Assembly (NCBI GenBank): GCA_016192995.1
Contig: JACPTB010000002.1
Location: 98,283-162,282, forward strand
Direction of reading: 5' to 3'
DNA from: Candidatus Woesearchaeota archaeon
GTDB taxonomy: Archaea; Nanobdellota; Nanobdellia; Woesearchaeales; DSVV01
Length of the DNA stretch: 64,000 bases
Part shown: positions 4,272 through 57,766 of the stretch, piece after piece
Position numbering within the stretch: position 1 is the stretch's first letter
How the letters are laid out: the number at the start of each line of letters is the position of its first letter
Notes under the pieces: model-generated
Told to the model about the DNA's origin: nothing
Seen by the model: only the letters and a program-made list of their open reading frames with translations
Database searches by the model: none
Program-made: the position numbers and the translations under genes

Positions 4272-6449
4272 TTGAAATTCTCTATGCAGGATAAAGAGTT
4301 TGATTATCTCCAAGTGTTAAGGGCAGTAGATGAGATTCCGTTTGGTGTAGGAAAGAAACTATTAATCGAATTCTTGCAGGGAAAAGCAAAGACTGAATCC
4401 ATTATAAGAAACAAATTAAACAAAAAACAAACCTTCGGCTCATTAGCCTACGAGGATAATGAGCTTAGTTTAATGATTGATAAACTGCTTCTTAATAACT
4501 TACTGGAGATACAATCGCTTCAAGCAAATAAATTCTGGAAAATAATAGGATTAACTGAAAAAGGAAGAAAAGAACTGCAAAACCCTACTCTGCACAAAAA
4601 GAAGCTTTCAAATAATTTCAAAAACATAAAAACAGTGATTACAGAAAAAGAACGTGAACTATTTCTTGCGCTGGGAGATTTCATAAGTAAATATAACGAC
4701 GAACAAAAAAAAGCAATAATTTCTAACAAAGAACATATCCTCTGCCTTGCTGGAGCAGGAACAGGAAAAACATCAGTTTTAACAAAAAGAATTGAATTTC
4801 TAGTACAATATAAATCTGTTCAACCGCAGAAAATTCTCGCAATTACTTTTACGAGAAAAACGCGTGATGAAATGGTAAAAAGACTGAGCCAAAATCCGCA
4901 ATGCAACAATGTGCAGATAGAAACATTTAATTCATTTTGTGAACGAATGTTAAGAACACATAATAATTATTTGTATGACAAACCAATGGAAGTTATTATG
5001 TACAGGGATAAAATAAAAATTATCATGCAAGCGCTTAATAATTTGCATTTAGATATAAACAAAGCAATTGCAATTTATTTTACTAGCAACCAACAACGTG
5101 GAAAATCAAGCGAGCAATTGGCAAATATTTTCATGCATGACTGTTTTTTTGTGAGAGATTATTTTAAATCAAAAAACAAGCAGTTAAAACATGAAGAATT
5201 TGAAACAGATGAAGCAAAGCATGAACAAGCTGCAGCCATGATGTATGGCGTCTGCAATTATATTGACACTTACATGCAAAAATACGGATTGCGGGATTTT
5301 ACTGACCAGTTGCTTGACACATTAAAACTATTCACCCTTCACAAAGAATTAATCCCCAAATTTGATCACATCATGATTGATGAATATCAAGATATCAACA
5401 CAACACAAATTGAACTGATCAATGACCTTAATCCACCTAATCTGTTCTCTGTTGGCGATCCGCGACAATCTATTTATGGATGGCGAGGATCTGATATCAA
5501 ATTTATTCTTAATTTTGAAGATGCTTATCCAAATGCAGAGATAATTACTTTAACTAAAAACTATCGTTCATCACCAGCAATTGTTGATCTTATCAATAAA
5601 GCTATTGCGCCGATGGGATTAGCAGATCTTGAATCTGCGCAAGCTGGAAATACTAGAAATCCTGAAATAAAAATGTTAAAATGCCAGGATGAAAACGCTG
5701 AATTTTCGTTTGTAATCAATAACATAAAAAATACCACTCTTCCAAGAAATGAAATTTTTGTGTTAGCAAGAACAAACAGGCAATTAAAAGATCTCTCTGA
5801 TCTATTAAAATTACAAGATATTGCTCATGTTGTCCGCACTGATGAAACAAGAAAAAGAGTGTATACTGAACCTCATCAAATAACACTTGCCACAATCCAC
5901 GCAATAAAAGGACTTGAAGCGGAGATGGTATTGATTATAGGTTGCACAGCAGCAAATTTTCCCTGCAGAGCATCAGACCATCCAGTCATTGACATGATCA
6001 AAGTTGATGAATATGATAAAGAGGAAGAAGAAAGAAGATTATTTTATGTTGCCATGAGCAGAGCAAAACAAAACTTGTTTTTAACCTACACCGGCAAAAA
6101 CCCAACCTATTATATTACTCCTGAAATGCTCAAGATAGTACAACTTGATAAAACAATAGTTTCCAACCTAAAATTAGATAGTGAAATGCCTTCAATTTCA
6201 ATAAATACTGCTAAGAACAGGATAAGAAAAACAAATGCCAGTCAAATAGAAGAACGATTAAAACAATGGCGTTGGGAAATTGCGCAACAACACAGCATTC
6301 CTGCATACATGGTAGTCAGCAATAAAACCATTATCGAACTTGCCCAAAAAATGCCTTTAACAACGCAAGAGATGTATGATATTTATGGTCTTGGTCCAAA
6401 CAAAATTATGAGATATGGAGAAGAATTGTTAAAGGTATTGCATAGATAA
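4272..6449 (+). CDS. UvrD/PcrA-type SF1 DNA helicase with N-terminal RQC-like wing and C-terminal HRDC domain
   Basis: Walker A AGAGTGKT, motif II IMIDEYQD, motif IV NYRS, motif V TIHAIKGLE; C-terminal WRWEIAQQHSIPAYMVVSNKTIIELA...GLGPNKIMRYG is HRDC; N-terminal IPFGVGKKLLIEFLQGKAK resembles the RecQ RQC wing. Confidence 0.8.
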   Translation: MKFSMQDKEFDYLQVLRAVDEIPFGVGKKLLIEFLQGKAKTESIIRNKLNKKQTFGSLAYEDNELSLMIDKLLLNNLLEIQSLQANKFWKIIGLTEKGRKELQNPTLHKKKLSNNFKNIKTVITEKERELFLALGDFISKYNDEQKKAIISNKEHILCLAGAGTGKTSVLTKRIEFLVQYKSVQPQKILAITFTRKTRDEMVKRLSQNPQCNNVQIETFNSFCERMLRTHNNYLYDKPMEVIMYRDKIKIIMQALNNLHLDINKAIAIYFTSNQQRGKSSEQLANIFMHDCFFVRDYFKSKNKQLKHEEFETDEAKHEQAAAMMYGVCNYIDTYMQKYGLRDFTDQLLDTLKLFTLHKELIPKFDHIMIDEYQDINTTQIELINDLNPPNLFSVGDPRQSIYGWRGSDIKFILNFEDAYPNAEIITLTKNYRSSPAIVDLINKAIAPMGLADLESAQAGNTRNPEIKMLKCQDENAEFSFVINNIKNTTLPRNEIFVLARTNRQLKDLSDLLKLQDIAHVVRTDETRKRVYTEPHQITLATIHAIKGLEAEMVLIIGCTAANFPCRASDHPVIDMIKVDEYDKEEEERRLFYVAMSRAKQNLFLTYTGKNPTYYITPEMLKIVQLDKTIVSNLKLDSEMPSISINTAKNRIRKTNASQIEERLKQWRWEIAQQHSIPAYMVVSNKTIIELAQKMPLTTQEMYDIYGLGPNKIMRYGEELLKVLHR

Positions 6450-6455
6450 TATTTA

Positions 6456-6632
6456 GAGAACTTTGCAAAATTATGGTTACTGCCAATTTCGTGAGCATTT
6501 TCGAAATATTTATCGGGCAATTTTCGAGGTTCCTTGCCGACAGGCAAGTCTTATAATCCCGATCTTTAGTCGAGATTATATTTATAGAGAGAAAATTGCT
6601 TTGTTTAACAAAGATCTCAATGCGAACTGGCT
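6456..6632 (+). mobile_element. MITE-like repeat, family 1, copy A (degenerate right end, nested insertion in core loop)
   Basis: left end GAGAACTTTGCAAAATTATGGTTACTGCC shared with copies at 43079 and 48447; internal hairpin core 6517-6599 interrupted by ~53-nt insert. Confidence 0.7.
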
Positions 6633-6658
6633 TGCTTCCAGATACTAATTGTAAATGA

Positions 6659-6865
6659 GAAAGAAAAGTTTCACCAAACAAATGTTTTTCATACGCTTCA
6701 GATGCCTTCTCAACAAGAAGAGGTTCAATTAGCAGGGCAAGAGAAGTAAGAAAGTTTAAGCAAATGGGTTATGAAGAATGGGCTAAAGAAAAAGAATATG
6801 GGATGAGATGGGCTACAGAAGGAAAATTCTCTTCTGTTAAGAGAAAATTTAGAAAAAAAATCTAA
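6659..6865 (+). pseudogene. C-terminal remnant of an IS4/IS5-type DDE transposase
   Basis: open frame without start reads ...AREVRKFKQMGYEEWAKEKEYGMRWATEGKFSSVKRKFRKKI*; contains Y-(2)-R-(3)-E-(6)-K signature (Y GM R WAT E GKFSSV K) and RWxxExxFxxxKxxF tail typical of DDE_Tnp_1 C-termini. Confidence 0.5.
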
Positions 6866-7767
6866 ACATCTACTAAACAACCACCGCTTCTCATTGCAGC
6901 TGATAGCTCTTTCCCTTGTTTCACCAATTTTGCACGTTCTTGAAGAGTTGGGACTTGATATAATCTATCCTCGCTTGCCATTTCGTTAAATATTTCCATA
7001 CCCATTTTTAAACCATCATCTTTGCATCTATTAATTACCCTTTGTGGTACTTCACCATCATAGACACGTCTAACAAGTGGATCTGCTGCTGCTTTGAGTG
7101 CTGCCAATCCTTCTTGAGAAAGCAGTAAGTGATAACCTACAACACCAGCATTGCTGCGAAATTCTCCAACTTCTCCTCCACAATCACCAAGAATTTCTGG
7201 TAATCTTTCTTCTTGAAATGATTGAACTTTTCTGTGATATGCTGGTAATCGTGATACATAGTGTGGTGCATTTAATACGACAAGAACATGCTGACGATGT
7301 TTACCATATATTTGTGTGTCTCGTACGCGAGCATTCCAATCTCTATATACTTCATCCATAGGATAGCCTGCTTTTTGTATAGTTTCTTCTGGAACTTGTT
7401 CAGTTAATAGATTACCAGCAGACCCTAAAATACTTCTATTAGTAGCACTCAGCCCTCCTTGTCTTCCAACAATTGCTGCAATTGGATAATCCTGGCCATT
7501 AATAGTATATTGTTTCCTTAACTCTACTCCCTCTAGTTCTGCTATCGCTTTCGTTATCTCTGCTACCAATCCTGCTCCCAATCGAGAAACAAGTTCAGTA
7601 ACTGAAGTTGTCTCCCGCAGAATTTCTAACTCTTCCTCTGTTGCTCTTAGTTCAACCAATATCCTCTTCTTCTTTCCAGCATGATGATTGACATCTTTCA
7701 CAAATGTTCGTACAGAAAGATCTTTTTCAAATATAAGCACGCTGTTATACAGCGCAGGAACAATCAA
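6862..7767 (-). CDS. hypothetical protein, compositionally atypical (A/G/R/V-rich; locally higher GC)
   Basis: 301-aa uninterrupted ORF in an AT-rich background; amino-acid usage unlike neighbouring K/I/N-rich proteins; adjacent to transposase remnant and MITE copy. Confidence 0.4.
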   Translation of the reverse strand: MIVPALYNSVLIFEKDLSVRTFVKDVNHHAGKKKRILVELRATEEELEILRETTSVTELVSRLGAGLVAEITKAIAELEGVELRKQYTINGQDYPIAAIVGRQGGLSATNRSILGSAGNLLTEQVPEETIQKAGYPMDEVYRDWNARVRDTQIYGKHRQHVLVVLNAPHYVSRLPAYHRKVQSFQEERLPEILGDCGGEVGEFRSNAGVVGYHLLLSQEGLAALKAAADPLVRRVYDGEVPQRVINRCKDDGLKMGMEIFNEMASEDRLYQVPTLQERAKLVKQGKELSAAMRSGGCLVDV

Positions 7768-11864: not shown

Positions 11865-12021
11865 GTATGTAATAAGTCTTGTATGGTTTTAGCGCCAGTT
11901 CAGCTTTTGAAGTGTGTTTCAATTGGATTTTTCTCTCTGGAACTCCGAAAAATCCCCAAAATGTATTTAAGAAGAGCTTCACAAAAGTAGGCGCTAAAAC
12001 CCCAGACGACTTATTACATAC
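11865..12021 (-). mobile_element. MITE-like element, family 2, copy B (157 bp) with TIR and 7-bp TSD
   Basis: TIR GTATGTAATAAGTC / GACTTATTACATAC; flanked by CACAAAA on both sides (11857-11863 and 12022-12028); core hairpin 11925-11955. Confidence 0.75.
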
Positions 12022-33587: not shown

Positions 33588-33843
33588 TACGTAATAAGTC
33601 TGGGGTTTTAGCACCTACTTTTGTGAAGCTGTTCTTATATTTGCTGTGAGGATTTTTCGGGGTTCCTTGCCGATAGGCAAGTCTTATAATCCCAGACGCA
33701 AGCCAAATTATGACTCCTTGATTTATAAGAAAAATCCAATTGAAACACACTTCAAAAGCTGAACTGGCGCTACCTGAATCCGAAGGATCTCAGGGATTAA
33801 AAATAGTAATTTTTAATAAAACCATAAAAGACTTATTACGTAC
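33587..33843 (+). mobile_element. MITE-like element, family 2, copy C (257 bp) with TIR and 8-bp TSD
   Basis: TIR GTACGTAATAAGTCT / AGACTTATTACGTAC; direct repeat GTCGAGTA at 33579-33586 and 33844-33851; core hairpin 33650-33737 carrying a nested insert. Confidence 0.85.
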
Positions 33844-33903
33844 GTCGAGTATAAACATTTATATACTAGTAGCTACATGAAATGATTAAGAGGTGGTACT
33901 AGT

Positions 33904-42301: not shown

Positions 42302-43117
42302 ATGTACGAAGAACTATTCCGCGAAATTGGCTTAAGTCCAAACGAAGCTAGAATTTACGAAGCATTGCTCCAAACAGGCGATGCTTCAGTGCAGACTATT
42401 GCAATTAAGGCAAACATTCATCGGAGAAATGCATATGATGCTTTAAGCAGACTTTTAGAAAAAGGATTAATCTCCCAAACCATTCTCAGCAATGAGCAGC
42501 ACTTCAAAGCAACCAATCCAGAACGATTGCTTTCCATGATAAAAGAAAAAGAAGATAAAATAACAAAAGCGCTTCCGGAAATCAAGCAAAAGTTTTTTCA
42601 AAAACAAGAAAAAGAACAAGCATATATCTACAAAGGCATCCAAGGATTCAGAAATTACATGCAGGATATTCTTGATGTTGGCAAAGATGTTTATTGCATT
42701 GGCGCTAAAGGTGGATGGTTTGAACCACGATTAAAAACATTCAGATTTAGATTCTATGAAGAACTCAAAAAAAAGAACGTCAAATGCTACCATTTATTTG
42801 ATGCAGAAATGATGCAACAGCAGAACGAAGCTGAAGGACCTGTACCAGTACATCTCCATGAAGCACGATTTTTACCTGAAAAATATTCCACACACTCAGC
42901 AATTGATATTTTAGATGATCGTGTCATTACTTTCACTGGATTAAATATTAACAAGCTTGATGATGATGTCACTATATTTGTGTTAATAAGCAAAAAACTA
43001 GCTGATGATTACAAAAAATGGTTTTGGCTGATGTGGAATGCAAGTTCCCCAATTGATAAAGGAGAAGAAAAAGCTAAAGAGAACTTTGCAAAATTATGGT
43101 TACTGCCTATTTTGTGA
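42302..43117 (+). CDS. trmB: TrmB-family transcription regulator (paralog 2); last 13 codons MITE-derived
   Basis: REIGLSPNEARIYEALLQTGDASVQTIAIKANIHRRNAYDALSRLLEKGL; C-terminus ENFAKLWLLPIL encoded by MITE copy D. Confidence 0.65.
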   Translation: MYEELFREIGLSPNEARIYEALLQTGDASVQTIAIKANIHRRNAYDALSRLLEKGLISQTILSNEQHFKATNPERLLSMIKEKEDKITKALPEIKQKFFQKQEKEQAYIYKGIQGFRNYMQDILDVGKDVYCIGAKGGWFEPRLKTFRFRFYEELKKKNVKCYHLFDAEMMQQQNEAEGPVPVHLHEARFLPEKYSTHSAIDILDDRVITFTGLNINKLDDDVTIFVLISKKLADDYKKWFWLMWNASSPIDKGEEKAKENFAKLWLLPIL

Positions 43118-43222
43118 GCATTTTCGAAATACTTATCGGGCAATTTTCGGAGTTCCAGAGAGAAAATTGCTTTGTTTAACAAAGATCTCAATGCGAACTG
43201 GCAGTAACCCGAGCTTTGCATT
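43079..43222 (+). mobile_element. MITE-like repeat, family 1, copy D (right end truncated)
   Basis: GAGAACTTTGCAAAATTATGGTTACTGCC ... GGCAGTAACCCGAGCTTTGCA; core hairpin 43140-43170. Confidence 0.75.
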
Positions 43223-43482: not shown

Positions 43483-46400
43483 ATGAATGAACAAAAAATC
43501 CTGCGAATTAAAAAAAGAACTGGTGAATATGTTGGATTTGATCTGAAGAAAATTTCTAATGCTATTTTCAAAGCTGCCCAGGCAGTGGGAGGTTCTGATT
43601 ATAAAATCTCAGAACGATTAGCAGAACAAGTTTTTGACATGCTCAATGAACAGGACTTGAAAGAAGACATACCTTCAGTGGAAGATGTTCAGGATTGCGT
43701 TGAAAAAGTGCTTATTGAAACAGGACATGCAAAAACAGCAAAAGCTTTTATCTTATATAGACAAAAACGTGCAGAAGCACGATTAAAAGCTGATGCATTA
43801 GTTGGTATAAAAGGTTTGGAAGAAAAGCAAGATCCTTTTGGCGTGAATGAAGAATTATTCGGCAGTTCATTAACCAGCCATAATATCAAAGTTACGGTAA
43901 CTGAACCAATTGCAAAAATGTTTACGTATAACAGCAAATTATCCAAGTTAGTGGATAAAAATAAAATTAATGCCTATAGAAAATTATTTTATATGCTCAA
44001 GGATATGCAGAAGGAGGGTTCGTTGCCATTGCATCCTGCAAATGATTATTTAGCAGGCAATGAACTTGCCATGGATATTTACAGGAAAAAATATTATGTC
44101 CACGATCTTGATGATAACCTTATTGAGCAGCGTCCGGAAGATGTATTTGTAAGGCTTGGTTCTTATCTTGCATCTATTGAAGAAGATGAAGACAATCAAG
44201 TGTATTTTGCCCAGGAATTCTATAAAATGCTTTATGAAGGATATTTTGTGCCTGGCGGCAGAGTAATTGCTGGAGCTGGAGATTTATATAGATTAAAAAC
44301 ATTAGCAAATTGCTTTGTTTCAGTGATGGAAGATGATAACATTGAATCTATTTACAAAGCTGCTTTCGAATGTGCGCGAACATATTCATATGGGGGAGGA
44401 ATTGGCGTTGATATTTCTACCCTGCGTCCAAGAGAAGCTGTGGTACATAATGCAGCAAATTTCTCAACAGGCAGCGTTTCATTCATGGAAATCTACTCAT
44501 TAACAACAGGGTTAATTGGTCAAGCTGGAAGGCGAGGCGCATTAATGCTAACTATTGATGTTAAGCATCCTGATATTCTTAATTTTATTAGAGTCAAACA
44601 AGAATCAAATTGGGTGACAAAACAGATTAGGGAGCAATGCAGCTGGTCAGGAAAATTCAACGCTGAACAGCTGGATGCGATTGAAAAACAAGTTCGTGAA
44701 AACACCCAGGTAAGGTTTGCAAATATTAGCATGAAAGTTACTGATGAATTCATGACTGCTGTTGAAGAGCAAAATAAGTATGGAAAGGATAAAATAGTAG
44801 TGTATAAAAAATTTAGCAAATTGATTATTAATAGAGTTAACCAAAGCAAAGAAATGAATTTTGCCTTTGGCATTCCTTCAAAATATTTAGAGAATTATGA
44901 GTTATATAAAGTATTTGAAACCATTGAAGAAGCAAATGAGTTTATACATAAAGAAACAAACAAACAGATCTCCAAGCAATTGCTTGAAAATGTGCAGAAC
45001 AGGGACATTTATGGAGATGTAATTGTACCAGTAGAATCACAAAATTATGATTTAGCAGTGAGATATTCAGGTGATTATTTATTATATTTTAGTTCTGAAC
45101 CTGCAGGAGAAACAAGAAGATTAGTAAAAGCGCGGGATATTTGGGATGAATTTGTTAAAGGTAATTATCAAACAGCTGAGCCAGGATTAATATTCTGGTC
45201 AAGAATGACAAAGTATTCACCTTCTAATTATATAGGGAGACCAATTGCAAGTACAAACCCCTGTATTGCAGGAAACTCACAGGTATCAACAAGTAAAGGA
45301 TTGCAGCAAATAAAAGAGCTTGTTGGTAAAACGCCTCAGATTCTAACTGACAACCGAGTGCCTATACAAGTGAGAGATACTAACGGAAGAATTATGTTGC
45401 TCGAACAAAAACAACAAGGAGTAAGTTTTGACACTATAGAAGCAGCATGGTCATCGGGAATTAAAGAAACCTATAAACTTACCACAAAAAAGGGCTATGA
45501 AATCACTGCAACAGGTGATCATAAGATTATGACTACTGAAGGTTTTAAGCAGTTACATGAACTTACACCTAAAGATAAAATTTTAATCCAAAAAGGAGAA
45601 GGCATGGGAAACAATGATAAGCTATTATCTATTGAAAGAGATGAAATTATCAAAGGAGATAATAATCATATCTATCATTACAAATTCCCCACAACATGGT
45701 CAAAAGAACTTGGGCAATTGCTTGGTTGGACAGTAGGAGATGGATTTATCACTCCTGAACCAGATAATAGACTTGGGTTAGTATTTAGTAAAGAAGATGA
45801 AGACGTGATGAGCCAGTTAAAGAAGTTTATTGAGGAGATATATGGAAAAGAAACAAAACCAAGCATCAGAGAGTCTACAACACAATTAAGATACCATAGT
45901 AAATATTTTTGTGATTTTCTACGTAGATTAGGCATCAAAAGTGTAAAAGCTGAACTTAAGCAAGTTCCGCATAGGATATTTACTGCGCCAAAAGAAGCAG
46001 TAGTAGGATTTTTACAGGGATTGTTTACTGCTGATGGAACTATGGCAGTTGGCGAAAAAGGGAATTATATTCGATTAACTTCTAAGTCAGAAAAGCTTCT
46101 GAAAGAAATACAAATAATACTTATTAACTTAGGGATGTTATCTACAATCTATGAACGCCATCGAACTCCTCAGAAAAAATTTAATTACTATAATGCAGCT
46201 GGAGAATATAAAGAGTACATAACAGATGGGAAATTATGGGAGTTAAGTATAACTAAAGGAAGCTTGCAGCGATTTGTTGAAGAAATTGGGTTTATAGGAA
46301 GTAAACACCAAGAAAGAATAAAAGTATTTCTCACAAAGAAACAATACCAAGAACACTTTTACGATACTATAAAAAGCATAGAACCACAGGGAAAACAAGA

Positions 46401-47730
46401 AGTATTTGATCTAACAGAACCACGAACACATTCTTTTATAGCTAATGGCATTGTTATTTCAAATTGTGGTGAAGTGCCATTAGAAGACGGCGGCGCTTGT
46501 AATCTTGGATCAATTAATCTTTCTCGGTTAGTAATTGATGGTTTTACTGATACTGCAAGAATTAACTGGAACGAACTTGAACGAGTAACAAAGTTGGCTA
46601 CACGATTTTTAGATAATGTTGTTGGCTGGAATATTTCATTGAATGCTCTTGATAAACAACGGAGTGCTGCTGCAGAAACACGAAGACTTGGTTTGGGTGT
46701 TATGGGAATTGCAGATATGTTATTTCAGCTTGGTTTAGAATATGATAGTGAAGAGGGTATAGCAGTTATTGAGAAAGTTTGTCAGGTTATTGCTAATGCA
46801 GGTTATCGTGAATCCGCAGAATTAGCTGAAGAAAAGGGAGCTTCACCAGTATTTGATTATAACAAATACAGCCGCAACCCATTTTTTAAAGAAGCTCTTG
46901 ATGACAATACTAAAGAATTAGTCAAGAAAAAAGGATTGCGGAATATTGCAATACTTTCTATTGCGCCAACAGGAACTATTTCAAATATTGTATTAGGGTA
47001 TAAAGGAGAGCAAAAGAATTATATTGGTGTTAGCGGCGGTGTTGAACCGGTATTTGCAATATTTTACACGAGAAGAAGTGAAAATTTCGGCAACAAACGA
47101 TTTAACATCTTCCATTCAACAGTAAGCGCTTATTTGGATAAAAAAGGGCTCCAGGAAAAAGCGCAGTATGCAACAAGTGAAGACGAACTCCGCCAACTGT
47201 TGCCTGGATGCTTTTTTAGAACTGCCCATTATATTGAGCCTGAAAAAAGAGTTTTAATTCAGGGAGACTGCCAAAAATATACTGACCATAGTATTTCATC
47301 AACCGTCAATTTACCTGAAAGCATAAGCCCTGAAACCATTTCAGAGATTTACATTAAAGCATGGAAATTTGGCTTAAAAGGGATCACTATTTACCGTGAT
47401 GGAAGCAGGTACCCTATTTTAAGCATTCAGCAACAGCAAAGCGCATTTCAAGATTTCAAGAAAAAACAATTCAAATATGTCTCTGATGGAAAAGAAATCA
47501 TAGTAAGAGGCGACCAAGTTATAAAGCTGCCTCAGGGAAAGCTTTCAACGCCGTATCATGCGCAGAGAGAAAACATTCAAGGGATAGTGTTAACCGAGAT
47601 CACTGATCAACCAGCGATAACTGAAGAAGACAGTTCTAATAAAAATGAAGATCATAAAGATGATAACAAAGCTAAAGTCTGCACTATTAGTTTTGAAGAT
47701 GGAAAGCTTGTTAAATCATGCTCAGAGTAA
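43483..47730 (+). CDS. nrdJ: class II (adenosylcobalamin-dependent) ribonucleotide reductase with ATP-cone and intein
   Basis: N-terminal ATP-cone ILRIKKRTGEYVGFDLKKISNAIFKA; catalytic TNP-C...GEVPLEDGGACNLGSINL; C-terminal GLKGITIYRDGSR and terminal Cys pair. Confidence 0.85.
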   Translation: MNEQKILRIKKRTGEYVGFDLKKISNAIFKAAQAVGGSDYKISERLAEQVFDMLNEQDLKEDIPSVEDVQDCVEKVLIETGHAKTAKAFILYRQKRAEARLKADALVGIKGLEEKQDPFGVNEELFGSSLTSHNIKVTVTEPIAKMFTYNSKLSKLVDKNKINAYRKLFYMLKDMQKEGSLPLHPANDYLAGNELAMDIYRKKYYVHDLDDNLIEQRPEDVFVRLGSYLASIEEDEDNQVYFAQEFYKMLYEGYFVPGGRVIAGAGDLYRLKTLANCFVSVMEDDNIESIYKAAFECARTYSYGGGIGVDISTLRPREAVVHNAANFSTGSVSFMEIYSLTTGLIGQAGRRGALMLTIDVKHPDILNFIRVKQESNWVTKQIREQCSWSGKFNAEQLDAIEKQVRENTQVRFANISMKVTDEFMTAVEEQNKYGKDKIVVYKKFSKLIINRVNQSKEMNFAFGIPSKYLENYELYKVFETIEEANEFIHKETNKQISKQLLENVQNRDIYGDVIVPVESQNYDLAVRYSGDYLLYFSSEPAGETRRLVKARDIWDEFVKGNYQTAEPGLIFWSRMTKYSPSNYIGRPIASTNPCIAGNSQVSTSKGLQQIKELVGKTPQILTDNRVPIQVRDTNGRIMLLEQKQQGVSFDTIEAAWSSGIKETYKLTTKKGYEITATGDHKIMTTEGFKQLHELTPKDKILIQKGEGMGNNDKLLSIERDEIIKGDNNHIYHYKFPTTWSKELGQLLGWTVGDGFITPEPDNRLGLVFSKEDEDVMSQLKKFIEEIYGKETKPSIRESTTQLRYHSKYFCDFLRRLGIKSVKAELKQVPHRIFTAPKEAVVGFLQGLFTADGTMAVGEKGNYIRLTSKSEKLLKEIQIILINLGMLSTIYERHRTPQKKFNYYNAAGEYKEYITDGKLWELSITKGSLQRFVEEIGFIGSKHQERIKVFLTKKQYQEHFYDTIKSIEPQGKQEVFDLTEPRTHSFIANGIVISNCGEVPLEDGGACNLGSINLSRLVIDGFTDTARINWNELERVTKLATRFLDNVVGWNISLNALDKQRSAAAETRRLGLGVMGIADMLFQLGLEYDSEEGIAVIEKVCQVIANAGYRESAELAEEKGASPVFDYNKYSRNPFFKEALDDNTKELVKKKGLRNIAILSIAPTGTISNIVLGYKGEQKNYIGVSGGVEPVFAIFYTRRSENFGNKRFNIFHSTVSAYLDKKGLQEKAQYATSEDELRQLLPGCFFRTAHYIEPEKRVLIQGDCQKYTDHSISSTVNLPESISPETISEIYIKAWKFGLKGITIYRDGSRYPILSIQQQQSAFQDFKKKQFKYVSDGKEIIVRGDQVIKLPQGKLSTPYHAQRENIQGIVLTEITDQPAITEEDSSNKNEDHKDDNKAKVCTISFEDGKLVKSCSE
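45262..46464 (+). other. intein (401 aa) with LAGLIDADG homing-endonuclease domain, inserted before catalytic Cys of nrdJ
   Basis: N-terminal splice CIAGNS, block B TGDHKIMT, LAGLIDADG motifs LLGWTVGDGF and VVGFLQGLFTADG, C-terminal HSFIANGIVISN followed by extein Cys. Confidence 0.8.
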
Positions 47731-47828: not shown

Positions 47829-48446
47829 ATGGCTAGATATGGAAAAATCCAGGTATATACCGGAGATGGAAAAGGAAAAACAACAGCATCATTAGGATTA
47901 GCTCTGAGAACTGTTGGCCAAGGCGGTAAAGTATTTATTGTGCAATTTATGAAAGGCGGCGCATACACCGGTGAATTTATCAGCATCAAAAATTTCCTCC
48001 CAAAGATTGATATTATACAATTTGGAAGGGGCTGTGTTAAAGAAAAAAAACAAATGAAATTATTAGGGATTAATGAAGGAGCAAAATATTTTGATTTTGT
48101 GAGAGAAGATATTGAATGCGGACCTTGCAGATATTGTTTTCTTAATGACCAGGAACAAGTAAAATTCGTGAAAAGCGCTTTTGCCTTAGCGCAGAAGTTA
48201 ACTGCTTCAGAAGATTATGATTTAATTATTCTTGATGAAGTTAATGTAGCATTGAAATTAGGATTTTTGAGCATTGAAGAAGTGCTTGAATTAATGGAAA
48301 AAAAACACCCGCAATTGGAGTTAATAATGACCGGCAGAGATGCCCATGAAAAAGTAATGGAGAAAGCAGATTTAGTTACTGAAATGAAATTAGTCAAGCA
48401 TTATTTCGACAAAGGCACTTCTGCAAGAAGAGGGATTGAGTATTAA
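47829..48446 (+). CDS. cobO: ATP:corrinoid adenosyltransferase (CobO/CobA/BtuR family)
   Basis: VYTGDGKGKTTASLGLALRTVGQGGKVFIVQFMKG P-loop signature. Confidence 0.8.
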   Translation: MARYGKIQVYTGDGKGKTTASLGLALRTVGQGGKVFIVQFMKGGAYTGEFISIKNFLPKIDIIQFGRGCVKEKKQMKLLGINEGAKYFDFVREDIECGPCRYCFLNDQEQVKFVKSAFALAQKLTASEDYDLIILDEVNVALKLGFLSIEEVLELMEKKHPQLELIMTGRDAHEKVMEKADLVTEMKLVKHYFDKGTSARRGIEY

Positions 48447-48608
48447 GAGAACTTTGCAAAATCATGGTTACTGCCTATTTTGTGAGCATTTTCGAAATAC
48501 TTATCGAGCAATTTTCGGAGTTCCAGAGAGAAAATTGCTTTGTTAAAAAGATATCTCAATGCGAACCGGCAGTAACCCGAGCTTTGCGAGTATTTTGCAA
48601 AGTTCTCC
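48447..48608 (+). mobile_element. MITE-like repeat, family 1, copy E (162 bp, intact palindrome)
   Basis: 16-bp perfect TIR GAGAACTTTGCAAAAT / ATTTTGCAAAGTTCTC, inner IR GGTTACTGCC / GGCAGTAACC; core hairpin 48508-48538. Confidence 0.8.
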
Positions 48609-50330: not shown

Positions 50331-52361
50331 ATGCCCCTTGAAAAAGTCATTAAACGGAATGGTGAAACTGTAGTTTTTGATCCAAAAAAGATCACAGATG
50401 CATTGTACAAAGCAGCGCAAGCTATTGGAGGAACTGATGAAGAGCTCTCTAAAGCATTAACAAAAAAGATTGTAGCAAAGATAGAAGAATTATTTCCTGA
50501 CAAAATCCCCCATGTTGAAGATGTTCAGGATGTTGTTGAGCGTGTTTTAATAGAAGACAATCATGTAAAAACAGCAAAAGCATATATTTTGTATAGGGAA
50601 CGCCAAAAAAATATCCGGGAGGTAAAACAGTCATTAGTAGGAGGATATGTTGATAAGCGCTTTACTATTAATGCATTAAAAATTCTCAAAGAACGATTAT
50701 TAATGAAAAAAGAAGATGGCGCTGTTGAAACGCCTGAAGATATGTTTAGAAGAGTAGCAAAAGAAATAGCAAAAGCAGATAAACAATATGATAATGAGCC
50801 AAACCTGAAAGAAACTGAAGATAAGTTTTTCGAGTGTTTAAACAAGCTTGATTTTTTGCCAAACTCGCCCTGCTTAATGAACGCAGGAACCAAAAATCAG
50901 CAGTTAATTTCATGCTATGTCCTACCAATTGAAGACAGCACTGAAAGTATTTATACAACATTAAAAAATGCTGCAATGGTGCATCGTACAGGTTCAGGAA
51001 CAGGCTTTTCTTTTTCCAATTTAAGACCAAAAGAAGATACGATCGATGATTCTCGTGGATTTTCAGCAGGGCCAATTCCATTTATGCATGTCTATGATAA
51101 ATCAACAGAAATAATCAAGAAAACTGGTTTAAGGCGTGGCGCAAACATGGCAGTGTTGCGTGTTGATCACCCCAATATCCTCGATTTTATTACCGCAAAA
51201 GAAAATCCCCATCACTTGAGAAACTTCAACATCTCTGTTGGCATTACAAAAGAATTTATGGATGCATTAGACAACAGAAAACGATATCCATTAATTAATC
51301 CGCGAACAAAGCAGGAAGTTCGTTTATTGCCTGCTAAAGAGGTCTTTGATTTAATTGCAACAATGTCGTGGAAAAATGGTGAGCCAGGAGTTATTTTCCT
51401 TGATACTATTAATGAGAAGAACCCTGTTCCTGAACTTGGTGAAATAAAAACAACCTCTGCCTGCGGAGAAGTGCCTTTGCTTGAATATGAAGCATGCCCG
51501 CTTGGCTCAATAAACTTATCTAATATGGTGCAAGGAGGCAGGGTCAATTTAGCTGCATTGCGGGACACTGCGTGGATTGCAGTGCATTTTCTTGATAATG
51601 TTATTGATGTAAATAAATACACCTTAAAAGACAGTGAAAAAATAACTAATGATAATAGAAAAATAGGAGTTGGAGTTATGGGTTTTGCAGATATGCTGTA
51701 TCAGTTAGGGGTTCCTTATAATAGTGAAGAAGCAATAAAAGTAGCAGAAAGAATCATGAAATTTATTCGTGATGAAGCAAGATTAGCTTCAGAAGCTCTA
51801 GCAAAAAAAAGAGGAGTATTTGCAAATTATGAAAAAAGCATATATGCAAAAAAAGGAATAAAGCAAAGAAATGCGACAACAACTGCTATTGCGCCAACAG
51901 GAACAATCTCATTAATTGCTGATTGTTCTTCAGGCATTGAACCGAATTTCGCTTTAAGTTACATGAAAAAAATCACCGGTGGGGATGAGTTATTATATGT
52001 TAATAAGCATTTAAAAAGCGAATTATTGAAAAGAGAGATTTATTCTGAAGATTTAATGAAAGAAATTGCATCAAAAGGATCACTCCAATCATTTTTGGAT
52101 TTAGCATCAGAAATCAGAAAAGTGTTTGTTATTAGCCATGAAATACCTGCAGAATATCATGTATTAATCCAAGCAGCATTTCAAAAATATTGCGATAATG
52201 CAGTTTCAAAGAGCGTTAATTTAGAGTACACTTCAAGCAAAGAAGATGTCGTTAAAACCTTCAAGCTTGCTTACAAACTAGGGTGTAAAGGAATAACCAT
52301 TTATCGAGATAGAAGCAGAGAAGATCAGATTTTAACACTATTAGGGGGAGAAGCAATATGA
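50331..52361 (+). CDS. nrdJ: class II ribonucleotide reductase (short paralog, no intein)
   Basis: ATP-cone VIKRNGETVVFDPKKITDALYKA; TSACGEVPLLEYEACPLGSINL; GCKGITIYRDRSR. Confidence 0.8.
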   Translation: MPLEKVIKRNGETVVFDPKKITDALYKAAQAIGGTDEELSKALTKKIVAKIEELFPDKIPHVEDVQDVVERVLIEDNHVKTAKAYILYRERQKNIREVKQSLVGGYVDKRFTINALKILKERLLMKKEDGAVETPEDMFRRVAKEIAKADKQYDNEPNLKETEDKFFECLNKLDFLPNSPCLMNAGTKNQQLISCYVLPIEDSTESIYTTLKNAAMVHRTGSGTGFSFSNLRPKEDTIDDSRGFSAGPIPFMHVYDKSTEIIKKTGLRRGANMAVLRVDHPNILDFITAKENPHHLRNFNISVGITKEFMDALDNRKRYPLINPRTKQEVRLLPAKEVFDLIATMSWKNGEPGVIFLDTINEKNPVPELGEIKTTSACGEVPLLEYEACPLGSINLSNMVQGGRVNLAALRDTAWIAVHFLDNVIDVNKYTLKDSEKITNDNRKIGVGVMGFADMLYQLGVPYNSEEAIKVAERIMKFIRDEARLASEALAKKRGVFANYEKSIYAKKGIKQRNATTTAIAPTGTISLIADCSSGIEPNFALSYMKKITGGDELLYVNKHLKSELLKREIYSEDLMKEIASKGSLQSFLDLASEIRKVFVISHEIPAEYHVLIQAAFQKYCDNAVSKSVNLEYTSSKEDVVKTFKLAYKLGCKGITIYRDRSREDQILTLLGGEAI

Positions 52362-57608: not shown

Positions 57609-57766
57609 CTCAGGTGAAAATGTAGTTTTTGGCATCTTTTGGTGAAGCTCTTCTTAATTTTACCTTGAGGATTTTTCGGAGTGCCAGAGAGAAAAATCCA
57701 ATCGAAATACTCTTCAAGAGCTGAACTGATGCCAAAACCGAGGCTATGCCGAGATTTTCACCTGAG
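57609..57766 (+). mobile_element. MITE-like element, family 2 variant, copy F (158 bp)
   Basis: 13-bp TIR CTCAGGTGAAAAT / ATTTTCACCTGAG; core hairpin 57669-57699 GGATTTTTCGGAGTGCCAGAGAGAAAAATCC. Confidence 0.75.

Follow-up and report, generated by a model that had tools for sequence, protein, structure and literature searches.

A probable dead internal fragment of an IS5-family insertion sequence beside a MITE-like repeat in a Candidatus Woesearchaeota genome

IS4, IS5, and the DUF2080-associated elements of DPANN archaea

Elements of the ISH1-type subgroup of the IS5 family are archaeal, are ~1.1-1.2 kb in length, and make an 8-bp target duplication (ISfinder). The original 1993 definition of the 'IS4 family', which is the source of the YREK signature, is said to have included IS5-type elements. 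As described by De Palmenaer et al. 2008 (PMC2266710), Y-(2)-R-(3)-E-(6)-K within region C1 is a hallmark of IS4, and its E is the glutamate of the DDE triad; the target duplications of IS4 elements are generally 'about 10 bp' (Table 1 of that work lists 7-13 bp, depending on the subgroup), and the ends of the elements are CA/CT.

The described system that lies closest to the locus considered here is an IS5 element with a DUF2080-associated gene, which is found in MAGs of Nanoarchaeota and other DPANN archaea (Pfam DDE_Tnp_1_5 and DDE_Tnp_1). Contigs that carry one transposase of this type, P0031, come from five different genomic contexts and contain an identical 1196-bp unit, in which a divergent 60-aa ORF that passes the DUF2080 'transposase-associated protein' models precedes the 305-aa transposase. 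Against the NCBIfam IS5 model NF033579, for which the cut-off is 140 bits, P0031 scores 202.5 bits, and it also passes PF01609 and PF13737; its catalytic triad consists of D125, D198, and E263, with a spacing of 65 residues between the second D and the E. The 1196-bp IS is bounded by imperfect inverted repeats (TGTTCTGTTGCGTAATTA on the left and, as the reverse complement, TGCTTGGTTGCATAATTA on the right), and the ends of other family members read TGCTGTGTTGCATAATTA, TGCTCTGTTGCATAATTA, and TACTCTGTTGCACAATTA. The inverted repeats are ~18 bp long and start with 5'-TG...GTTGCRTAATTA. Perfect 8-bp target duplications (TATTTAAG, AAAAAATA, and CCAAAAGA) flank all three of the single-context copies from which duplications were read. 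(The P0031 copies of L005-L010, which are 100% identical and whose flanks are possibly chimeric, were left out of this comparison.) With an archaeal host, a length of 1196 bp, and 8-bp duplications in 3/3 copies, these elements may be akin to the ISH1 subgroup of IS5. This type of IS is common in DPANN/Nanoarchaeota metagenomes and is abundant in groundwater DPANN metagenomes. One member, L002, which is among the closest relatives of the relic, is a pseudogene, having an in-frame TAG (149-151) after ...IITVDV, and several database 'proteins' of 100-116 aa are C-terminal pieces of broken copies. Decay appears to be common in this family.

A transposase-derived frame in the window

The window analysed here is a stretch of 64,000 nucleotides from a Candidatus Woesearchaeota genome. 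It contains, at 6659-6865 on the + strand, a start-less open frame of 68 codons followed by TAA, just as the initial annotation had reported. Translation reveals no start codon at the 5' end of this frame, and the longest ATG-initiated ORF within it in the ORF listing is only 33 aa (6764-6865). The full translation, up to the stop, is ERKVSPNKCFSYASDAFSTRRGSISRAREVRKFKQMGYEEWAKEKEYGMRWATEGKFSSVKRKFRKKI, and its C-terminal end reads ...EYGMRWATEGKFSSVKRKFRKKI. It includes the 15-mer YGMRWATEGKFSSVK, encoded by 6800-6844, which can be written as Y-GM-R-WAT-E-GKFSSV-K and thus has exactly the Y(2)R(3)E(6)K spacing that had been claimed for it.

Profile and database searches both agree with the view that the frame holds the remnant of a decayed, truncated DDE transposase with a YREK-type C1 signature. 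NF033579 (IS5 family transposase, 'transpos_IS5_2') matches the fragment with E = 1.8e-6 and 27.6 bits, aligning fragment residues 24-67 with profile positions 222-265 of 289; this score lies below the whole-protein cut-off, as expected for 51 residues. A database search for transposase similarity, the lack of which would have refuted the initial annotation, returned, among 5.8e9 proteins, four short ones that are 78-85% identical to the fragment (best E = 2e-18); PF01609 is present in two of these, and one of the four bears the name 'IS5/IS1182 family transposase, partial [Nanoarchaeota archaeon]'. Using a longer query, which was rebuilt from contig L002 of one of the short matches, 186 relatives were recovered, most of which are 305 aa in length with PF13737 and PF01609. 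All 124 members of this 305-aa transposase family match the fragment, with P0031 being the best (86% identity by blastp), and 36 family members contain YGMRWATEGKFSSVK exactly. Across residues 223-273 of the transposase, the relic has 80-86% identity to the DUF2080-associated family in protein and 82% in DNA; the DNA identity extends over 151 nt, corresponding to positions 913-1063 of the P0031 element. The host, a Candidatus Woesearchaeota, fits the taxonomic range of the family.

One could still suppose that the likeness to a transposase arose by chance, or that the frame encodes the C-terminal end of some protein other than a transposase, as Pfam-A finds nothing in the 68-residue fragment even at E <= 10. 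(In particular, the tail had been described as typical of DDE_Tnp_1, but the Pfam DDE_Tnp_1 model itself misses the fragment.) Both suppositions are vanishingly improbable and are refuted: the IS5 model of NCBIfam hits the fragment at the expected profile positions, the 15-mer recurs in family members without change, the E value is 2e-18 in a search of 5.8e9 sequences, and a bona fide IS matches 151 nt of the DNA at 82% identity.

The fragment had been labelled as IS4/IS5-type, and of this label the IS5 part stands, through the NF033579 match, while the IS4 part does not. In profile searches no IS4 model matches either the fragment or P0031; only IS5 passes, and there is a weak IS1182 match. 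The relic does have the YREK spacing of the IS4 family, but its relatives, with their 305 aa and their 65 residues from the second D to the E, lack an IS4 profile match and also lack the IS4-type ends and target duplication: their ends begin with TG rather than CA/CT, and their 8-bp duplications fall below the general ~10 bp, although inside the subgroup range of 7-13 bp, so that IS4 is not excluded by the length of the duplication by itself. Of the 124 relatives, 121 have the YREK spacing; since this is a family assigned to IS5, the motif alone is not diagnostic of IS4. By its sequence relationships, the fragment is a true remnant of an IS5-family transposase and not of an IS4 transposase.

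Extent and decay of the relic

The frame is derived from a transposase only in its central and 3' part. Whereas the initial annotation had counted ~69 transposase codons, only ~51 are of this origin, at 6698-6850 on the + strand. This core is homologous to residues 223-273 of the 305-aa transposases (tblastn E = 1.2e-22), represents ~17% of the transposase gene (about 51/305 codons), and is the one single match in the window by tblastn. Comparisons of both protein and DNA place the start of the relic near 6698-6711 and its end at 6850-6861. The codons at 6659-6697 have no transposase similarity, and the spacer between the repeat and the relic, at 6632-6697, has no significant tblastn or blastn match to IS sequences.

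The C-terminus, which had been thought intact, is not. After ...KRKF the relatives read GEYVRSAKKNNMIEEARRKFVLYERMMAYAEA and extend as ...KRKFGEYVRSAKKNNMIEEARRKFVLYERMMAYAEA, 32 residues beyond the end of the relic, but the window reads RKKI and then the stop. Because the relatives continue past this point, the fragment is internal (aa 223-273 of 305), and RKKI with its stop is junction or decay sequence rather than a native terminus. A degraded continuation of the relic, to ~aa 282, may occupy 6851-6877 on the + strand and would include the in-frame TAA at 6863-6865. The extension comes from a gapped local alignment to L002 (ACATCTACTAA versus AGATCTACTAA), and four other IS copies (L001, L003, L004, and L005) do not support it; with only one of five IS copies in its favor it is kept as tentative, and the 3' boundary is uncertain by ~25 nt.

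Within the core, the degree of decay is uneven. At five positions among residues 224-229 the relic has D, F, S, T, and R, which are never seen at these positions in 120 relatives; this indicates that the 5' edge is decayed, perhaps by way of a compensated frameshift. Residues 230-273, however, are near the consensus: there are three differences, all known in relatives, and no stop or frameshift. Either the relic is not very old, or this stretch is merely short.

What has been lost is considerable. The relic carries the YREK-type C1 motif and the equivalent of catalytic E263, but neither catalytic D. Consequently, the 'intact signature' of the initial annotation has no functional meaning, given that the fragment is truncated at both ends and keeps only the E of the triad. 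In comparison with an intact element of the IS5/DUF2080 type, there is no complete DDE triad in one uninterrupted ~300-aa ORF, no DUF2080 accessory gene, no terminal inverted repeat on either side to bound an IS5 element, no end that could show a target duplication, and none of the last 32 residues of the transposase. The remaining N- and C-terminal parts of the transposase were not found in any frame of the 64-kb window or of the Logan variant described below. A search for an IS-type inverted repeat (here TGYTNNGTTGCRTAATTA) near the relic found none; throughout the window, matches to it with <=2 mismatches number 11 versus 8.1 expected, which is chance level, and the nearest lies inside the helicase gene.

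Taken together, these comparisons argue, with a probability that we put at roughly 0.93, that the feature derives from the inside of an IS5-family insertion sequence and is dead: it cannot encode an active enzyme or be mobilised and is most likely functionless. The relic is a pseudogene fragment rather than a functional member of the family.

A MITE-like repeat next to the relic and a 72-bp deletion

Immediately upstream of the frame, at 6455-6631 on the + strand, is copy A of a MITE-like repeat of family 1, which was aligned with two further copies at 43078-43213 and 48446-48608. Its left inverted repeat, GAGAACTTTGCAAAAT, is present, but in the window copy A ends at ...GAACTGGC, without the right end. 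In contrast, five Logan contig loci from four sequencing runs (L011 and L022-L025, with L011 and L022 being one contig in opposite orientations) have a full right end, ...CTTTGCGAGTATTTTGCAAAGTTCTC, and, after it, a 35-nt spacer that the window lacks. Starting at 6632, the Logan contigs and the window are identical except for 3 mismatches in 5282 nt. Thus, at the junction 6631/6632, where the window reads GAACTGGC followed directly by TTGCTTCC and the Logan version has the full right end of the MITE followed by TTTACGTAAATCTTTCGGTTAAATCGTAACATTTC, the window is missing 72 bp relative to L011 1-61 (and also to L022-L025). Microhomology at this deletion junction amounts to only 1 nt. The loss reflects either a deletion that is truly polymorphic or, as is less likely, an error of assembly; the Logan contigs with the complete repeat come from what appears to be the same population as the window. 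According to these independent read-level contigs, the repeat at 6455-6631 was once complete.

The other side of copy A is represented by Logan contigs that encode an identical 721-aa helicase; they stop 32 nt past its stop codon, inside the left end of the repeat, and their left flank is as in the window. Combining the two sides, the left flank reads ...ATATTTA/GAGAAC (window) and the right flank reads GTTCTC/TTTACG (Logan), with TTTA common to both. TTTA is the apparent 4-bp target duplication of copy A, and by this sequence evidence the copy appears to have inserted independently, at a site ~100 bp upstream of the relic.

The central loop of copy A contains a nested insertion of 52 nt (6534-6585, + strand), and a related insertion is present at the same site in a family 2 copy, from 33654-33693 onward. 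This small insertion, which starts with TTGCCGAYAGGCAAGTCTTATAATCCC and itself forms hairpins, occupies the same core-loop site in the family 1 (6534-6585) and family 2 (33660-33720) copies and could be either an element nested in the core or a region that varies in a site-specific manner.

Repeat families and the question of a parent element

Across the window there are six short repeats. Besides the three copies of family 1, family 2 and a variant are located at 11865-12021 (- strand), 33591-33850, and 57612-57765. All six are homologous through a central hairpin core, ATTTTCGGAGTTCC...AGAGAGAAAAT, and fold as long hairpins. Three different modules serve as their terminal inverted repeats (GAGAACTTTGCAAAAT, GTAYGTAATAAGTC, and CTCAGGTGAAAAT), and the inner stems, which differ by family, nevertheless stay complementary (GGTTACTGCC/GGCAGTAACC versus GGGGTTTTAGCGCC/GGCGCTAAAACC). 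Rfam (at gathering thresholds) has no match to the repeats, and the Rfam and tRNA scans of the window were empty; thus, neither an RNA-gene explanation of the repeats nor a tRNA integration site is supported. Family 2 copies are flanked by 8-bp direct repeats, in one case perfect (GTCGAGTA) and in another 7/8 (ATTTTGTG/TTTTTGTG), at 33583-33590/33851-33858 and 12022-12029/11857-11864. There is good evidence, then, that the family 2 repeats are transposed MITEs, and the length of the duplication equals that of the IS5 elements related to the relic.

Two of the family 1 copies lie near long ORFs. The repeat at 43078-43213 is directly upstream of ORF 43483-47730, and the repeat at 48446-48608 is ~1.7 kb upstream of ORF 50331-52361, with another ORF in between. 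These two ORFs hold similar stretches (for instance, 43678-43760 versus 50514-50596, 72%; 46949-46990 versus 51877-51918, 79%), which suggests that they may be paralogous.

In the general model, MITEs derive from a parent IS. With lengths of 135-260 bp, terminal inverted repeats, long hairpins, multiple copies, and flanking direct repeats, the repeats in the window resemble this model, but neither their ends nor their interiors match the IS family of the relic. The initial annotation had nominated the relic as a candidate autonomous source of the MITEs, that is, as the leftover of the element that made or moved the repeats next to it, and had proposed to compare the inverted repeats of a full-length homolog with those of the MITEs. 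(The ends of the relic itself are lost; the ends compared are those of its intact relatives.) The outermost 7 nt turn out to be wholly different, whereas the inner core agrees at up to 11/12 positions: the MITE has GAGAACT followed by TTGCAAAATTAT, and the IS ends have TGTTCTG followed by TTGCGTAATTAA, TGCTTGG followed by TTGCATAATTAT, and TACTCTG followed by TTGCACAATTAT. The best agreement, 11/12, is between TTGCAAAATTAT and TTGCATAATTAT, which occupy positions 8-19 in the MITE and in the IS, respectively; with both strands counted, only ~2.6 12-mers of such closeness are expected across the window.

This inner core, the physical adjacency of relic and copy A, and the 8-bp target duplications that family 2 has in common with the IS family are what would speak for the relic as the parent. 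Beyond the unrelated terminal nucleotides, several observations weigh more heavily in the other direction. A blastn-short comparison of three MITE copies with the 1196-bp IS finds only chance 7-11-mers, so that no subterminal sequence is common to the MITE and its supposed parent; the family 1 repeat next to the relic has the 4-bp TTTA rather than an 8-bp duplication (weak evidence, coming from a single informative MITE copy); the inverted repeats of family 2, GTAYGTAATAAGTC, are unlike that of the IS; and copy A would have entered independently, ~100 bp away, with an apparent target duplication of its own. With different ends, a different duplication length, and no internal similarity, descent of the repeats from the relic's element is very unlikely, and this IS type as the source of the MITEs is largely refuted. 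Given the inner 12-nt core at 11/12, a more distant member of the same transposase clade may still be the mobiliser. The 21-nt MITE end was sought in GTDB representative genomes (the host genome is not among them) and in JGI metagenomes, each of which gave 4 single matches in unrelated, mostly bacterial sequence, with no further MITE similarity and no transposase nearby; neither these two collections nor the window yielded a parent element.

A broader arrangement can also be imagined, in which the repeats form a modular system, with a core of ATTTTCGGAGTTCC and AGAGAGAAAAT, whose junction is a hot spot for nested insertion, and at least 3 swappable inverted-repeat modules, and in which some versions are mobilised in trans by DUF2080-associated IS5 transposases. 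The 8-bp duplications made by family 2 and the inner 12-nt core of the IS within the family 1 inverted repeat fit such a system, which we nonetheless consider improbable. If it were true, the relic would be all that is left here of an enzyme by which non-autonomous elements were spread through a small DPANN genome.

Flanking genes and possible co-option

The repeat and the relic lie together in a 412-bp spacer between convergent genes. The left boundary of this intergenic region is a UvrD/RQC/HRDC helicase gene (4284-6449, + strand; Pfam). On the right, an ORF of 301 aa (292 or 279 aa elsewhere) at 6862-7767 on the - strand converges on the relic; it corresponds to HYY69_02195, a hypothetical protein of the Candidatus Woesearchaeota MAG, and lies between the IS relic and the GAPDH-PGK operon. 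A search of 5.8e9 proteins and a full HMMER scan of 1.84e9 representatives each returned only the protein itself, and it has no Pfam, NCBIfam, or PDB match; a single-sequence AlphaFold2 model is unusable (pLDDT 37.8).

The initial annotation had placed the fragment between a MITE and a compositionally atypical gene and had read the site as an old insertion or rearrangement point. The MITE-like repeat does adjoin the relic, and among the 52 long ORFs in the window none is richer in GC than the orphan ORF (39.2%; mean, 34.2%), but this composition is no foreign signature. Its GC1/GC2/GC3 values are 0.59/0.37/0.21, which places the excess in codon position 1 (z = 2.7), and GC3 is at or below the genome norm. 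Because GC3 is native-like, the composition does not mark foreign DNA; it reflects an unusual amino-acid composition (GC1) instead of a foreign nucleotide signature. With its strong coding periodicity and native-like GC3, the ORF is a genuine orphan gene. As for a rearrangement point, the site has indeed undergone several rearrangements.

The position of the relic against the orphan gene raises the question of whether it might have been co-opted, either as a small expressed ORF (the 33 aa from the ATG at 6764, or the 68-codon frame) or as a 3'-UTR or terminator from which the convergent orphan gene takes its stop and final codons. The TAG stop of the orphan ORF and the TAA of the relic frame overlap within CTAA at 6862-6865, 68 codons of the frame remain open in DNA that is AT-rich, and residues 230-273 have kept close to the consensus; if real, the extension at 6851-6877 would also run antisense to the stop and the final four or five codons of the orphan ORF. 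That extension, however, is seen with L002 but not with the other four IS copies, and 68 open codons are unremarkable beside a recently decayed gene. No start codon or upstream signal was identified for the frame, which also lacks the entire N-terminal DNA-binding portion and all but one of the three catalytic residues. A co-opted role is accordingly most improbable.

A proposed history of the spacer and its implications

In the history that we propose, the spacer that separates the UvrD-like helicase gene from the orphan ORF converging on it once held a copy of the IS. Deletions would then have taken ~900 bp on the left of this copy, including DUF2080, the inverted repeat of that side, and residues 1-222 of the transposase, among them the two catalytic aspartates, and ~120-135 bp on its right, including the last 32 codons and the right inverted repeat. 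Separately, the short inverted-repeat element would have entered ~100 bp upstream, apparently duplicating TTTA, and in the version of the genome represented by the window a further 72-bp deletion would have cut away the right end of this element and the 35-nt spacer. Both the order of these events and truncation by way of simple deletions are what we infer; the homology and its limits, the parts that are missing, the ends and duplications of the intact relatives, and the variant junction are directly seen in the sequences.

The relic is an ordinary one: what remains of a catalogued IS5-family transposase is a pseudogene fragment, immobile and truncated at both ends. For annotation, this means that the label of the frame should read partial IS5-family transposase pseudogene, not gene, and that YREK spacing alone should not be used to assign such a fragment to IS4. 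For the genome, it means that the intergenic stretch from the helicase gene to the orphan gene took at least 3 events: the insertion and truncation of an IS, the insertion of a MITE, and a 72-bp deletion that differs between assemblies of what appears to be one population. For the lineage, the relic shows that IS5 elements of the DUF2080-associated type were once active in these Woesearchaeota and were then eroded.
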